This document shows, one piece after another, positions 1,758 through 7,139 of a stretch of DNA of 7,139 nucleotides. The stretch comes from Neisseria perflava (GTDB lineage: Bacteria > Pseudomonadota > Gammaproteobacteria > Burkholderiales > Neisseriaceae), in assembly GCF_024170405.1 (NCBI RefSeq), contig NZ_JALJYC010000046.1, positions 1-7,139 of the forward strand. Direction: 5' to 3'. The notes beneath the pieces are model-generated. The model worked only from the letters and a program-made list of their open reading frames with translations. It was not told where the DNA came from and ran no database searches. Each line of letters begins with the position of its first letter. Position 1 is the stretch's first letter. Both the position numbers and the translations under genes were made by a program.

Positions 1758-2065
1758 AAGCAAGTTTGCGTAAAGTGAAATGGAATAAAGGCGTTGTACA
1801 AGATACAGGTCGGGAATACGACTACACCCGTATCTATATCGAAGCACCTATTTGGGACGGTTCATCAAATGAATTTGGCTTAGACACCATTTAACTTGAA
1901 TATGGTAACGAAGAAGCCCATAAAAATCTGTTCCATCTTAAAGGCAAATTGCCGGTAGATATTGAAGTTGAATATATCGACATGGTTAAAGGCAATGACG
2001 TTTTGAAAGTCGTGCAAAGCCTGAAAGTTCTGACACCGCAAGTTTCGGCAACACCGAAACCGTAA
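1754..2065 (+). pseudogene. Gene in the ssDNA-binding (gene V / RstB) position, 103 codons interrupted by an in-frame TAA at 1892-1894
   Basis: ATG 1754 overlaps the rep stop (ATGA), with AAGGA 7 nt upstream. The frame reads MKASLRKVKWNKGVVQDTGREYDYTRIYIEAPIWDGSSNEFGLDTI, then TAA, then stays open for 56 more codons (LEYGNEEAHKNLFHLKGKLPVDIEVEYIDMVKGNDVLKVVQSLKVLTPQVSATPKP) to TAA 2063-2065. The second part has no start codon or SD of its own. The function is assigned by synteny only. Confidence 0.55.
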
Positions 2066-2767: not shown

Positions 2768-3073
2768 ATGATTTGGGATATTTATAAGGGTTTCCGCCTG
2801 TATCTTTTAATGCGGGTTGTGTTGGATATCTTAGATATTTATCCGGCTCGAAAATATATATTTTGGCTTGTTTTATGTGTGGCTATTTTTGAAATAGTAA
2901 GAATTTTCATAAATAGAAACAATGATGAACCAGATGAAGATATTTTTATTGAAACACCTATAAATCCTAAAGGCTCGCCACCTGATTTTGATTCCGTTCA
3001 ATTCATGAAAGATTTGAACGAATTCAATTTGAAGCAAAAAGAAAAAATACGGGTAAAAAGGAAAAATGAATAA
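2768..3073 (+). CDS. Hypothetical 101-aa membrane protein in a low-GC block (possible moron or minor virion/assembly protein)
   Basis: A GAGGA SD lies 7 nt upstream. The N-terminal half is hydrophobic (LYLLMRVVLDILDI, YIFWLVLCVAIFEIVRIF) and the C-terminal half is charged. By hand count this region is about 27-35% GC per 60-nt line, against roughly 43-52% in sampled rep and zot lines. Confidence 0.6.
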   Translation: MIWDIYKGFRLYLLMRVVLDILDIYPARKYIFWLVLCVAIFEIVRIFINRNNDEPDEDIFIETPINPKGSPPDFDSVQFMKDLNEFNLKQKEKIRVKRKNE

Positions 3074-3086
3074 GTTATTTTTTTAA
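3066..3086 (+). other. Out-of-frame start of the pIII-like gene: ATG plus six codons ending in a T7 tract (3078-3084) and TAA
   Basis: The frame reads ATG AAT AAG TTA TTT TTT TAA, with AAGGA just upstream. One extra T, or a -1 slip on the T tract, joins it to the 3149 frame. That frame is already open from 3074 and encodes the hydrophobic core and AFA cleavage site of a signal peptide. Confidence 0.7.
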
Positions 3087-3148
3087 GCGGTCTTTTACTT
3101 TGTTCTTCATTTGCTTTTGCTGAACTAAATGTATCAAAAAGCGGTAAA

Positions 3149-4468
3149 GTGACTTATAAAAAACAGTCTGTTGCTCATTGGTATTCTAGTGGTTGGTCAA
3201 AAAGTGCAATTTCAGATAGTGCTTACAGAAACTTTCAAACTCAGGCAATGAAGGTCAGATATGAAAAGGCATTGTCGGCTTCATCTGTTCCAGTAGGTCT
3301 TGAAGCGGGTGTTTCAAGAGCAACCGTTCTAAAAAACTTATTCAGTAATTTTAAAAAATTCCGCTTTGGTGGCGGTTTTTGGACTTGGGCGGCTTTTACC
3401 GCTGTCGGTTTCGCTATTGATAAACTCCTAGAAGACGACGGCTACACCTATTCCGATTCAGGCAACAACTACACCAAAAATTATGCTTGTACAGTCAAAG
3501 CCAAATATCGTACGACGGTCTATGAAACCTTAGGCGTGTCCGATTCTGAATGCTCACGCGAATTAGGTTCAGCCATTGGTACTTATCTTTGTCAGAAGCA
3601 TTTTTCTTGGAGTGGATATACTTTTTCAGGATTTAATACAAGTAACGGAAATTGTGAATTTTCTAAAGGAAGTGATGTAAGGTCAAAAGGTAATATCACT
3701 TTTACCAAAAATCCCATAACAACCACACTTCAAGATGAAACCCTAGAAAGAATTATCGGCAAAGCCTTAGACAACGCAACAAGTACCGCTCTAGACAAAT
3801 ATATTCAAGCAACCGCCGATGAAAACGGCGATATTCCCGGTCTGGACATGACTATTTCCGTCCCTGCTGGAACAGTCGTTACCATCGGCCCATATACCGA
3901 CACAGACGGAAAAGTTAAACAAGCCACGATTACGTTCCAGCAAAGCGAAAGCGGAGAGACAACCGCCGATGTACAGGAAGAAGAACGTCCTGATTTAACG
4001 CCAAACAGCGAAGAAGCGCCGTCAGTAGAGCCGGAAGAAGAAACCGGCACCGGGTCGGGCAGTGAAACCGGAACAGGTACGGGAACGGGTAGCAGTACTG
4101 GAACGTCTACCGGAACAGATACCGGCACTTCAACCCGCACTGAAACCCAGCCGCAGGAACAAAGTTTTTTATGTGATTTATTTCCCGACATTCTTGCTTG
4201 CCAAAAAATGGGCGAACCATCAGAAGAAACATTTGAAGAGATAAGTATTCCGCAAGCAACTGATGATACAACATGGAAGCCTGATAGCTTTTTAGCTCCT
4301 AATGGCGTATGCCCGCAACCTAAGTCATTTAGCGTATGGGGTAAATCAGTTGAAATAAGCTACGAGCCTTTATGTGTATTGATGGAACAAGTCCGCTTTG
4401 CCGTTTTACTCGCATTCATTGTCATTTCTGCCTATATTTCATTTGGCGGATTAAGGAGTAAAGACTAA
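3149..4468 (+). CDS. pIII/OrfU-like minor coat (adsorption) protein; the true N-terminus is probably at 3066 via the T7 tract
   Basis: 439-aa ORF from GTG 3149, in the position before the pVI-like and Zot-like genes. It has an acidic and Gly/Thr/Ser-rich linker (EEETGTGSGSETGTGTGTGSSTGTSTGTDTGTSTRTET), a Cys-containing C-terminal domain and a terminal membrane anchor (FAVLLAFIVISAYISFGG). The in-frame upstream sequence encodes ...FLSGLLLCSSFAFA/ELNV. Confidence 0.8.
   Translation: MTYKKQSVAHWYSSGWSKSAISDSAYRNFQTQAMKVRYEKALSASSVPVGLEAGVSRATVLKNLFSNFKKFRFGGGFWTWAAFTAVGFAIDKLLEDDGYTYSDSGNNYTKNYACTVKAKYRTTVYETLGVSDSECSRELGSAIGTYLCQKHFSWSGYTFSGFNTSNGNCEFSKGSDVRSKGNITFTKNPITTTLQDETLERIIGKALDNATSTALDKYIQATADENGDIPGLDMTISVPAGTVVTIGPYTDTDGKVKQATITFQQSESGETTADVQEEERPDLTPNSEEAPSVEPEEETGTGSGSETGTGTGTGSSTGTSTGTDTGTSTRTETQPQEQSFLCDLFPDILACQKMGEPSEETFEEISIPQATDDTTWKPDSFLAPNGVCPQPKSFSVWGKSVEISYEPLCVLMEQVRFAVLLAFIVISAYISFGGLRSKD
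4043..4147 (+). repeat. Imperfect (ACN-GGN)n coding microsatellite-like tract giving a Thr-Gly/Ser-rich linker
   Basis: 35 codons read TGTGSGSETGTGTGTGSSTGTSTGTDTGTSTRTET. The repeated ACCGG/ACGGG/ACAGG units are visible in the DNA. Confidence 0.8.
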
Positions 4469-4752
4469 TGCCTGCCGCTTTAATACCACTTATCGGCATA
4501 TTGCTGAAACTTCTGGTTGTTAGAATTATTATTGCAACCGGTATGACCTTTGTAACTTATACCGGCTATATAGTTGCCTTAGATACCTTCAAAGACTACA
4601 TCAGCCAAGCTATGGCCTCAATGCCCGATGATATTCTTCAGTTATTGCTGATTGGTGGATTCGGTCAAGGACTTGGATATTTGTTTGGTGCATTTTCATT
4701 TCGAATCAGTATGAGCGCATTAAACAAATTGACATTTGTTTTACCGAAATAA
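4468..4752 (+). CDS. pVI/Ace-position small membrane protein (minor coat protein, DUF2523-like by recollection)
   Basis: 94 aa and very hydrophobic (LIPLIGILLKLLVVRIIIATGMTFVTY, LLLIGGFGQGLGYLFGAF). The start overlaps the pIII-like stop (TAATG), with an AAGGAG SD. It sits between the pIII-like and Zot-like genes, as in CTXphi and Ff. Confidence 0.7.
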   Translation: MPAALIPLIGILLKLLVVRIIIATGMTFVTYTGYIVALDTFKDYISQAMASMPDDILQLLLIGGFGQGLGYLFGAFSFRISMSALNKLTFVLPK

Positions 4753-4761
4753 GGGGAAAAC

Positions 4762-5499
4762 ATGATTTATCTGTTTACCGGAAATATGGGTACCGGCAAA
4801 ACCTCGCGTGTTGTATCCATGATTTTAAACAATGAAGACGGTTTGTTTAAAATGAAGCTCGAAGACGGTACGGAGGTTGATAGACCACTATATTTTTGTC
4901 ACATCGACGGCTTGGATAAACGTAAGTTTAACTCCCACGAGTTGACAGAAGAGCAAATTATGGAAGCCCCGTTGCGTGATGTAATCCCGCAAGGTGCAGT
5001 ATTAATTGTAGATGAAGCACACTATACCTATCCAGTCCGTTCTGCCGGTCGTCCTGTGCCTCCTTACATTCAAGAATTAACTGAACTCCGACATCACGGC
5101 CATACGGTTATTTTAATGACACAGCACCCAAGCCAATTAGACGTATTTGTCCGCAATTTGGTTTCAAAACATGTTCATCTTGAGCGTAAAGCAGTCGGAA
5201 TGAAGCAGTATTGGTGGTACAAGTGCGTAACCAGTTTAGACAATCCGGCCGGTGTCAGCGGCGTGGAATCTGCAAGTTGGAAACCGCCTAAAGAAGCATT
5301 TAAATATTACAAATCTTCCAGCCAACACCAAAAATTTAAGAAAAAAGTCCCCTTGGTAATATGGGCGTTAATTGCAATTTTGGGGTTTGTCGGTTGGAAG
5401 GCATACACCATGTACAATTTGTATAAAGAAGGTACGCAGACAACAGAACAGGTTGCAGATGTTCAAGCAACACCGGAAAGCAACATAGCAGAAAAATAA
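4762..5499 (+). CDS. zot: Zot/pI-like assembly ATPase, N-terminal ATPase domain plus TM segment (truncated relative to typical pI/Zot)
   Basis: Walker A is GNMGTGKTS (aa 7-15) and Walker B is VLIVDEAH (aa 80-87). A TM segment is present (VPLVIWALIAILGFVGWKAY), and an AAGGGG SD lies upstream. At 245 aa it is short for this family; the next frame is open from 5489. Confidence 0.85.
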   Translation: MIYLFTGNMGTGKTSRVVSMILNNEDGLFKMKLEDGTEVDRPLYFCHIDGLDKRKFNSHELTEEQIMEAPLRDVIPQGAVLIVDEAHYTYPVRSAGRPVPPYIQELTELRHHGHTVILMTQHPSQLDVFVRNLVSKHVHLERKAVGMKQYWWYKCVTSLDNPAGVSGVESASWKPPKEAFKYYKSSSQHQKFKKKVPLVIWALIAILGFVGWKAYTMYNLYKEGTQTTEQVADVQATPESNIAEK

Positions 5500-5563
5500 T
5501 CAAGGCATTAATGGGAATAGTTCCCCTAATGGCAATCTAAAACCATCCGATTTTGTACCGACA

Positions 5564-5938
5564 TTGGCCGAGCGTCCCGAATCAAAACCTATTTATGACA
5601 GTGTCCGTCAGGTCAAAACCTATGAGCGCATAGCAGCTTGTATTTCCGGCGGCAAAAGTGGATGTACTTGTTACAGCGATCAAGCAACGCCGTTGAAAGA
5701 AATCACTAAGGCTATGTGTGAGAAGTACGCCAAAGATGGCATACCATTCAACCCATATAAAGAGCCGGAAACGCAAAACATGGCCAAAGCGCAGGCACAG
5801 CACCAAACGGCAGATTCAGACGGCCAGCCGTCCCAAATCGTATCACTCGGCGGCAAGAGCCAACAGAATCTGATGTATGACAACCTAGTATCCCGTGACA
5901 GTTTCGGTACGCAAAACGGGGCAAAAGTTGGGGGATAG
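5564..5938 (+). CDS. Probable C-terminal (periplasmic) part of the Zot/pI-like protein, separated by a frameshift; alternatively an independent 124-aa protein
   Basis: This frame is open from 5489, overlapping the zot stop. It has no ATG or GTG and no SD before the TTG at 5564. It contains SGCTCYSDQATPL, which resembles a Cys-x-Cys-Tyr motif I recall in the C-terminal domains of Zot-like proteins. Joined to 4762-5499 it would give about 390 aa. Confidence 0.55.
   Translation: MAERPESKPIYDSVRQVKTYERIAACISGGKSGCTCYSDQATPLKEITKAMCEKYAKDGIPFNPYKEPETQNMAKAQAQHQTADSDGQPSQIVSLGGKSQQNLMYDNLVSRDSFGTQNGAKVGG
5815..5826 (-). repeat. DNA uptake sequence core (minus strand) inside phage coding sequence
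   Basis: TTCAGACGGC at 5815-5824 is an exact match. The 12-mer reads TGGCCGTCTGAA. Confidence 0.85.
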
Positions 5939-5946
5939 ACAATATC

Positions 5947-6000
5947 GCTGCTTTTTTCGGGTTGATAACGCTTTAGCGGAATCGACCCGAAAAAAGCAGC
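5947..6000 (+). promoter_or_regulatory. Perfect 16-bp stem hairpin 9 nt after the last morphogenesis ORF (candidate packaging signal, minus-strand origin, or part of a structured ncRNA)
   Basis: GCTGCTTTTTTCGGGT (5947-5962) is the exact reverse complement of ACCCGAAAAAAGCAGC (5985-6000). Three further pairs (5964-5966 with 5981-5983) extend the stem inward. No U-run follows on either strand. Confidence 0.6.
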
Positions 6001-6116: not shown

Positions 6117-6127
6117 ACGGTATCTTG
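6117..6127 (+). repeat. Copy 2 of ACGGTATCTTG, 31 nt upstream of the recombinase ATG
   Basis: Exact 11-mer. With the preceding T it shares 12 nt (TACGGTATCTTG) with copy 3. Confidence 0.6.
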
Positions 6128-6158: not shown

Positions 6159-7139
6159 ATGGTTTATTTGGGATCAGATGTATCAAAATCAACGATAGAT
6201 TGCTACATTCTGAGTGATGAAAAATCAGAACATTTCAAGATAGAAAACAATTCAGACGGCCTTAACAAACTACTTGAACAATTCAAACACCAAGACCTGT
6301 CAAAAATCCATGCCTGCTGTGAATCAACAGGCATTTATTATTTGAAAGTTGCCGAATTTCTGTACAGTTATCAGATTAAAATCAGCGTGGTAAACCCATT
6401 AGTCATCAAAAATTATGCACGTTTAAAACTGTCACGGATTAAAACTGACAAGCAGGATTCGAAGTTGATAGCGGAATACTGTCAAAATCAGAAGCCGAAG
6501 CTATGGCAACCTGACAGCCCTTTAAAACAGCAAATTCGCAGTTTGAACCGCAGAGCGGATCAACTAAACAGTTTGCTGGTAATGGAAAAGAACCGTCATC
6601 AGGTAGCGGATGATTGCGTTAAATTATCTATTGAGGAAACAATAGGCTTTTTAACCGAACAGATACAATCCGTTAAAAGACAAATTCAGGATTTGATAGA
6701 CAACAATACTGATTTGAAACAAAAACAGGGCATATTGGAAACAATACCGGGTATCGGCAAAACTACGGCTGCATGGTTATTGTCGGTATTGGTTGATTTG
6801 AACAAGTTTCCCAACGCCAAGCACTTTGTAAGCTATCTTGGTCTGACACCGGTTATTAAAGAATCCGGGACAAGTGTAAGAGGGTTATCTGTCATATCGA
6901 AAATGGGGGATAGGGCTGTAAGGAAAGCCCTATATATGCCTGCGCGTTCGGTTTGTACCCGCTCCAAGCTTTGGCGGCCTTGGTATGAGCAAAAACTTGA
7001 AGCGGGGAAACATCCAAAGGAAATTTATGTAGCCATGATGAAAAAAATATGTATTTATGCCTACACCTGCTTACAGAAAAATCAGCCTTTTGATGAAAAT
7101 TTACATAAGCGGCTTACAAGTGAATACGGTATCTTGATT
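6159..7139 (+). CDS. IS110-family (Piv/MooV-like, DEDD) transposase/recombinase, 3' end beyond the window
   Basis: My own translation gives 327 codons from ATG 6159 to the window edge with no stop. It begins MVYLGSDVSKSTIDCYIL. DEDD candidates are D7 (GSDVSK), E55 (CCESTGIYY), and D97 and D100 (IKTDKQDSKLIAEY). A Transposase_20-like C-terminal domain is present (PGIGKTTAAWLLSVLVDLNKFPNAKHFVSYLGLTPVIKESGTSVRG...SKMGDRAVRKALYM). An AAGG SD lies 7 nt upstream. Confidence 0.9.
   Translation, partial: MVYLGSDVSKSTIDCYILSDEKSEHFKIENNSDGLNKLLEQFKHQDLSKIHACCESTGIYYLKVAEFLYSYQIKISVVNPLVIKNYARLKLSRIKTDKQDSKLIAEYCQNQKPKLWQPDSPLKQQIRSLNRRADQLNSLLVMEKNRHQVADDCVKLSIEETIGFLTEQIQSVKRQIQDLIDNNTDLKQKQGILETIPGIGKTTAAWLLSVLVDLNKFPNAKHFVSYLGLTPVIKESGTSVRGLSVISKMGDRAVRKALYMPARSVCTRSKLWRPWYEQKLEAGKHPKEIYVAMMKKICIYAYTCLQKNQPFDENLHKRLTSEYGILI
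6251..6262 (-). repeat. DNA uptake sequence 12-mer AGGCCGTCTGAA (minus strand) inside the recombinase gene
   Basis: TTCAGACGGCCT at 6251-6262 is an exact match. Confidence 0.85.
7126..7136 (+). repeat. Copy 3 of ACGGTATCTTG, inside the last recombinase codons visible in the window (candidate attR / right-end core)
   Basis: Exact 11-mer within ...AGT GAA TAC GGT ATC TTG ATT. Confidence 0.6.

Follow-up and report, generated by a model that had tools for sequence, protein, structure and literature searches.

What has become of the start of the adsorption-protein gene in a filamentous prophage of Neisseria perflava, and does the run of seven T residues found there (T7) mark a genetic switch, a recoding site, an assembly error or a lesion? 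The gene in question, tspB, lies on contig NZ_JALJYC010000046.1 of assembly GCF_024170405.1, a stretch of 7,139 bp that was analysed in full (hereafter the window) and that, as judged from gene content and from matches to Pfam and PHROG profiles, carries a prophage of the Nf/MDA type. An earlier note, made from the sequence alone, had reported that the export leader of this protein is separated from its ATG by the T run and had listed the four explanations just named. The last of these is favoured here: we assign a probability of roughly 60% to the reading that a real deletion by replication slippage (T8 to T7) became fixed before two N. perflava isolates diverged from each other, within a prophage whose zot has been lost as well. 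The sequence elements at and around the tspB start are the following.

2768-3073, plus strand: phage open reading frame (ORF) of 101 amino acids (aa), with its TAA stop at 3071-3073
3058-3062, plus strand: AAGGA, a Shine-Dalgarno-like (SD-like) motif with a 3-nt spacer to the ATG at 3066
3066-3086, plus strand: six-codon remnant ORF, ATG AAT AAG TTA TTT TTT TAA, comprising the ancestral tspB start and the signal-peptide n-region (MNK)
3078-3084, plus strand: T7 homopolymer, exactly 7 nt long, at which the frame breaks; with T8 the gene is whole again
3083-3121, plus strand: rest of the Sec leader, LSGLLLCSSFAFA, read in the frame of the tspB body, with predicted cleavage after AFA and before the Glu codon at 3122-3124
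3074-4468, plus strand: open frame of the TspB-family protein (pIII-like adsorption protein; PF05616, 175.6 bits)

The remnant ORF terminates at the TAA of 3084-3086. The frame of the tspB body is closed upstream solely by TAA 3071-3073, the stop of the preceding 101-aa ORF, and from 3074 it reads VIFLSGLLLCSSFAFA ELNVSKSGK ahead of the called GTG at 3149. TspB is characterized by an N-terminal signal sequence and a C-terminal hydrophobic stop-transfer anchor (PMC5472700). As written, the gene in the window has no start codon joined directly to a Sec signal peptide; the two are united only after addition of one T, which in silico gives MNKLFFLSGLLLCSSFAFA/ELNV... and a precursor of 467 aa whose leader is comparable in hydropathy to those of homologues. 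On these points the earlier note had read the locus exactly, namely a pIII-like frame open from 3074 with a leader core and AFA site devoid of a start codon, an ATG at 3066 preceded by AAGGA, a T run of 7 nt and a complete Sec leader after insertion of one T. The T7 tract is the longest homopolymer of tspB and is placed precisely at the frame break; a T run of at least 7 nt occurs in 35% of shuffled windows, so that T7 by itself is within chance expectation. The missing T also puts the tspB body in frame with the upstream 101-aa ORF, with TAA 3071-3073 alone between them; a read-through fusion of the two was considered and judged to be an accidental by-product of the deletion.

The annotated starts, GTG 3149 (439 aa, MCP1661310.1) or a downstream ATG (406 aa), both yield leaderless products, with a maximum 10-aa hydropathy of -0.29. 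The deposited proteins evidently owe their shortened N-termini to a gene caller confronted with a frameshift. The identity of the protein as pIII-like, likewise proposed by the earlier note, is borne out by a PF05616 (TspB) score of 175.6 bits against a curated cut-off of 20, by 285 TspB homologues at E <= 1e-3, by the C-terminus ...VRFAVLLAFIVISAYISFGGLRSKD, a hydrophobic membrane anchor aligning to nearly invariant columns, and by the position of the gene after the coat gene(s) and before the pVI-like and Zot/pI genes, an order repeated in the related loci L003 and L009. The tspB gene of the window is a disrupted member of the TspB/pIII-like adsorption proteins of Nf-type inoviruses.

Comparison with 120 retrieved TspB homologues (~37-41% identical overall, ~70% in the C-terminal fifth) bears on where the gene originally began. 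An in-frame Sec-type leader is present in 116 of the 120, and 66 start with MNK (MNKFIIPLLVLFTSSFAIAGEIQV..., MNKLILFFFFFLGSSYLFAGDINIKGKSVTY...), in a pattern of MNK, hydrophobic core and AxA/G. The repaired N-terminus MNKLFFLSGLLLCSSFAFAELNVSKSGKVTY... aligns with these residue for residue, across the cleavage region and on into mature TspB, the end of its leader corresponding to SSFAIA/GE of the homologues. At the DNA level, the motif AAATGAATAA(A/G)TTA is common to the window and to loci L003, L005 and L008. In the window the upstream stop and the tspB ATG overlap by 8 nt (ATGAATAA); the same overlap is found in L003, where the upstream gene spans 2855-3160 and tspB begins at 3153. Since ATG 3066 is orthologous to the MNK starts of the homologues and overlaps the stop of the upstream ORF, it is to be regarded as the ancestral start of tspB. 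Homologues that start downstream and lack the leader would have spoken against this corrected start; with leaders in nearly all of them, the start at 3066 holds. Among GTDB representative genomes only five distant loci were found, with intact leaders in all five.

Three homologues showed odd N-termini (P0069, P0082 and P0104, the last beginning MSGLSNAQ), and the DNA was read for P0069 and P0082 only. P0069 (locus L002, MGSSYLFAG) was rejected as a tract-length variant, its T8 being unchanged and its N-terminus lying at a rearranged contig junction; the contig has low coverage, a differing upstream sequence and an integrase fragment on the other strand. P0082 (locus L009, MRVPAGG) was rejected as a case of leader loss, as it has an intact in-frame leader that the gene caller skipped owing to the overlapping upstream ORF. 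No further leader frameshift was detected among the homologues whose DNA was read.

The same element was recovered from another, independent assembly of N. perflava (contig JALJYS010000059.1 of GCA_024170765.1, 7106 bp), which also carries T7 and differs from the window at two of 7106 positions, 1892 and 4320. Lesions outside tspB are located as follows.

4762-5499, plus strand: N-terminal 245 aa of Zot/pI (ATPase and transmembrane segment), ending at a premature TAA at 5497-5499
5489-5938, plus strand: C-terminal piece of Zot/pI, shifted into the next frame (about 130-150 aa), matching the Zot-like family phrog_197 at profile positions 290-388
1892-1894, plus strand: nonsense codon, present in the window only, which cuts ORF 1754-2065 (phrog_4994, function unknown) to 46 aa

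In relatives, Zot/pI is a single protein of 392 aa. Searched with tblastn, its residues 1-241 matched frame 1 at 4762-5493 (84% identity) and its residues 258-391 matched frame 2 at 5528-5932 (63% identity). The two frames overlap solely in 5489-5499 (CAGAAAAATAA), including an A5 run at 5492-5496, and the break must fall there; deletion of one A from this run in silico gave a Zot of 391 aa. The frameshift is common to both assemblies and severs the periplasmic C-terminal domain from the cytoplasmic ATPase and the transmembrane segment. A split arrangement resembling pI/pXI was rejected, given that the C-terminal piece is devoid of the transmembrane segment that pXI retains and that the relatives possess one 392-aa protein. 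The A5 run is far too short for a switch, and the correction it requires is opposite in direction to that of tspB.

As for the two positions at which the isolates differ, 1892 is T in the window versus C in the sister assembly, where ORF 1754-2065 encodes 103 aa, and at 4320 the other isolate shows C4320T, which replaces a nearly invariant TspB proline (P391L) that the window keeps (...GVCPQPKSF...). Both inter-isolate differences are, by their predicted effects, damaging.

Decay is favoured over a switch because the same prophage holds a second frameshift, in zot, together with further lesions. Of the four options of the earlier note, an inactivating mutation is the one that best accommodates the zot frameshift in both assemblies and the nonsense codon in a third gene, and the combination found here, a reading frame broken where homologues are intact together with other disabling lesions elsewhere in the prophage, is that expected of a frameshift pseudogene. 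According to this reading, tspB would originally have been translated from ATG 3066 with the leader described above, and replication slippage would have removed one T from T8, the most indel-prone site of tspB, if the mutation indeed ran in that direction. Translation from ATG 3066 would now end after six codons, leaving an export signal without a start codon, and neither the GTG nor the downstream ATG could yield a Sec-exported, membrane-anchored TspB. As written, tspB would be off, a young pseudogene that has presumably lost its function, in a prophage apparently degenerating as a whole, with frameshifts in tspB and zot in both isolates, a nonsense codon in a third gene and P391L. Occasional reversion from T7 to T8, or slippage by a few ribosomes or RNA polymerases, may occur; nothing marks either as selected. 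Taken together, the lesions point to a prophage that is probably no longer kept by selection for virion production.

Several observations weigh against prophage decay as the explanation. The body of tspB is still an uninterrupted frame of 465 codons, implying that the lesion is recent or that the gene is perhaps still used. Fixation of T7 is weakly sampled, the phage being found in only two closely related isolates: no more copies for comparison of the tract were detected by whole-window megablast against phage records, in IMG/VR by protein patterns or by a gapped DNA pattern for the tract region, in JGI metagenomes by protein patterns or a DNA pattern, or among GTDB representative genomes. 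T7 is moreover an assembly consensus and may be compatible with a mixed population of T7 and T8. A U run followed by a stop is a plausible 'shifty stop', as reportedly described by Weiss et al. in 1987, and some full-length protein may arise from it. Finally, meningococcal TspB has a host-side role, in immunoglobulin G (IgG) binding and biofilm formation (PMC5472700), through which tspB could be kept apart from phage assembly, so that the zot lesion alone is no proof that tspB is dispensable.

Among the alternatives, slipped-strand phase variation survives best and is nevertheless unlikely. It would make T7/T8 an ON/OFF switch of TspB, acting on adsorption and infectivity or on IgG binding at the host surface, with both isolates caught in the OFF state. 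The break does fall exactly within a homopolymer of the signal-peptide region, as in the pilC tracts of pathogenic Neisseria (PMC5953494), the downstream ORF is intact, and in one clade of relatives a T8 run, in frame, occupies a comparable place in the leader (TTC TTT TTT TTG). A precedent of sorts exists in truncated versions of G3P from a homopolymer-rich stretch of meningococcal prophage DNA, for which a link with phase variation was put forward speculatively (PMC9779448); our literature search returned no report of TspB phase variation, this IMSAR-11 G3P speculation being the only related item. However, the thresholds adopted for the Neisseria phasome are at least 11 nt for poly-A/T and at least 9 nt for poly-G/C, and even the G7 tract of siaD, switching at <1e-5, was deemed too stable for efficient phase variation (PMC5953494); T7, or T8 in the intact gene, is far below the poly-A/T threshold. 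The tract is also unconserved, since most homologues have no such run and the sister subclade of the T8 clade interrupts it (MNKLILFIFFCF). No length polymorphism was seen, both available assemblies having T7, the homologues read at the DNA level show no leader frameshift of their own, and the zot frameshift at A5 cannot be a switch. The phase variation suggested by the earlier note thus found no support.

That the true genome has T8 and an intact tspB, with T7 a homopolymer error of sequencing or assembly, is quite unlikely, although on several platforms no consensus error is more frequent than an indel in a homopolymer. Two separately assembled isolates, two single-nucleotide differences apart, agree on both T7 and the zot frameshift. 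In both assemblies the reading frame is kept across the A7 and G6 runs of the Rep gene and across the A7 run of the transposase gene, and because these other runs of 6-7 nt are correct, systematic homopolymer miscalls become less likely. For the second frameshift, at a run of just five A, a miscall is very unlikely, and the short repeat-bounded contigs suggest short-read assemblies. The earlier note had allowed for such an error, and the agreement between the assemblies leaves little room for it.

A further possibility, to which very little weight is given, is that the T7 allele is alive, either because the six-codon ORF ending in UUU-UUU-UAA would act as a 'shifty stop', admitting a small, constant share of ribosomes (or of transcripts with an extra U) to the TspB frame and so holding a membrane-toxic, IgG-binding protein at a few copies per cell, or because the tract would serve as a slow ON/OFF switch for a host-beneficial surface protein retained in a prophage otherwise defective. 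Were a leaky or switchable IgG-binding phage protein of this kind real, it would matter for the way in which commensal Neisseria regulate a factor associated with virulence; nothing here supports it.

Hardly more can be said for programmed or tolerated recoding, which is very improbable and by which full-length TspB would be made from T7 to supply the few copies needed for virions. Only about five copies of pIII are required per virion in Ff phages. The P-site tRNA-Phe would slip by -1 from UUU at 3081-3083 to 3080-3082, with the A site occupied by UAA, or RNA polymerase would insert an extra U on the T7 run. The sequence U UUU UUU UAA allows perfect -1 re-pairing, and the product would be exactly a precursor like those of the homologues; transcriptional slippage on A/T runs is known to rescue frameshifted genes (PMC1088944). 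Against this, the two-frame layout is conserved in no homologue, 116 of 120 homologues and five of five genome loci being single in-frame ORFs. No frameshift-stimulating RNA structure was detected, the segment 3050-3170 folding no better than its shuffles (z = -0.13). The sole SD-like motif is that used for initiation, ~19 nt 5' of the slip codon, a spacing outside the range that stimulates dnaX-type shifts. Selection against slippage-prone runs, or their use, typically begins at ~9 nt and occasionally at 8 (PMC1088944), and the present run has 7. The zot gene would in addition need an opposite shift at A5, which no slippage mechanism gives, and with a zot break beyond the reach of slippage, virions could not be assembled from the element alone. 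Incidental low-level slippage may well occur at T7 but bears no sign of being programmed; the recoding proposed by the earlier note found no support, given the unconserved layout, the missing stimulatory structure and the short tract.

Functional initiation at a non-canonical codon, whether at ATT 3077 of the body frame (giving MFLSGLLLCSSFAFA..., with hydrophobic core and AFA site retained) or leaderless from GTG 3149 or the downstream ATG, is extremely improbable, as ATT is a very weak start lying 14 nt from the SD motif and giving a leader without a basic n-region, and as the GTG and ATG products have neither a hydrophobic leader nor the N-terminal residues conserved in the family.

With the meningococcal MDA (Nf1), whose TspB is ORF6, and with the Neisseria prophages Nf1-Nf4 the element shares PF05616 and the order Rep_trans, small ORFs, CoatB, TspB, DUF2523, Zot and IS110-family transposase. 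It differs from them in the low identity of its TspB (~37-41%), a Thr/Gly-rich linker, a leader separated in frame from its start and a frameshifted zot, and on this comparison it is a new and divergent addition to the Nf/MDA prophages of Neisseria, a family in which truncation or other defects are frequent (PMC7058167). The closest deposited phages by tblastn are the human-associated Inovirus D_HF33_10 (OR148975.1) and D_HF6_34 (OR148969.1), with an 'attachment protein' ~40-42% identical over ~75%; they are similar in size (7.5-7.7 kb) and have intact leaders (P0091 and P0106) and intact genes. Megablast of the window detected no nucleotide-level similarity to any phage record.

Another difference from MDA/Nf TspB resides in the N-terminal 265 aa (3066-3860), which have no detectable relative outside their own cluster: in a search of 5.8 billion protein clusters at word-seeded sensitivity, this region matched only its own four-member cluster. 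It is presumably receptor-binding. The linker (4037-4146) consists of the Thr/Gly-rich repeat ETGTGSGSETGTGTGTGSSTGTSTGTDTGTS, with DNA repeats of 12/18-nt period; in all retrieved relatives the linker is rich in Pro, Asp and Lys.

Two systems invite comparison at the level of the tract. In pilC, as in tspB here, a homopolymer inside the reading frame, near the 5' end, decides on the production of an exported surface protein (PMC5953494), although the pilC tracts are long poly-G/C runs, conserved and length-polymorphic, in contrast to the unconserved T7, in which no polymorphism was observed. The IMSAR-11 G3P is likewise the attachment protein of a filamentous prophage, with a TspB-like C-terminus, and occurs in truncated or non-coding versions in a homopolymer-rich region, for which its authors raise phase variation versus assembly artefact (PMC9779448); it belongs to a different phage lineage in a different species, and its phase variation is a speculative proposal.

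Frameshift decay of prophage genes is commonplace, and the present finding is an ordinary one whose main value is a correction of annotation: tspB should be recorded as a frameshifted gene with its ancestral start at 3066, and zot likewise as frameshifted. Beyond this, divergent Nf-type prophages whose TspB has a novel, presumably receptor-binding domain at its N-terminus would appear to be present in commensal Neisseria and to decay by homopolymer indels.

The remaining genes of the prophage are listed below.

375-1757: Rep_trans replication protein
2146-2358: Inovirus CoatB (Pfam)
2368-2643: second coat-like ORF
4468-4752: DUF2523 protein, pVI-like (Pfam)
From 4762, plus strand: Zot/pI, split by the frameshift
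6159 to the contig end (7139): IS110-family transposase (DEDD_Tnp_IS110/Transposase_20)

The transposase is 33-38% identical to those of related Nf-type phages, and its gene is cut off by the contig end, a few codons short of the stop expected. Three copies of an 11-nt motif, ACGGTATCTTG, are present (71-81, 6117-6127 and 7126-7136); copies 2 and 3 flank the transposase gene, copy 1 lies just within the left contig end, and the contig terminates directly after copy 3. The three copies may represent recombination sites or att cores of transposase-mediated integration. The left end (1-37) contains a perfect 14-nt inverted repeat with the Neisseria DNA uptake sequence (AAGGCCGTCTGAAA ... TTTCAGACGGCCTT), and a further copy of TTCAGACGGCCTTA is found at 6251-6264 within the transposase gene. 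Directly 3' of the zot stop, a hairpin at 5947-6000 with 26-nt arms (88% complementary) and a 2-nt loop could act as a terminator, or as a phage origin or packaging signal.

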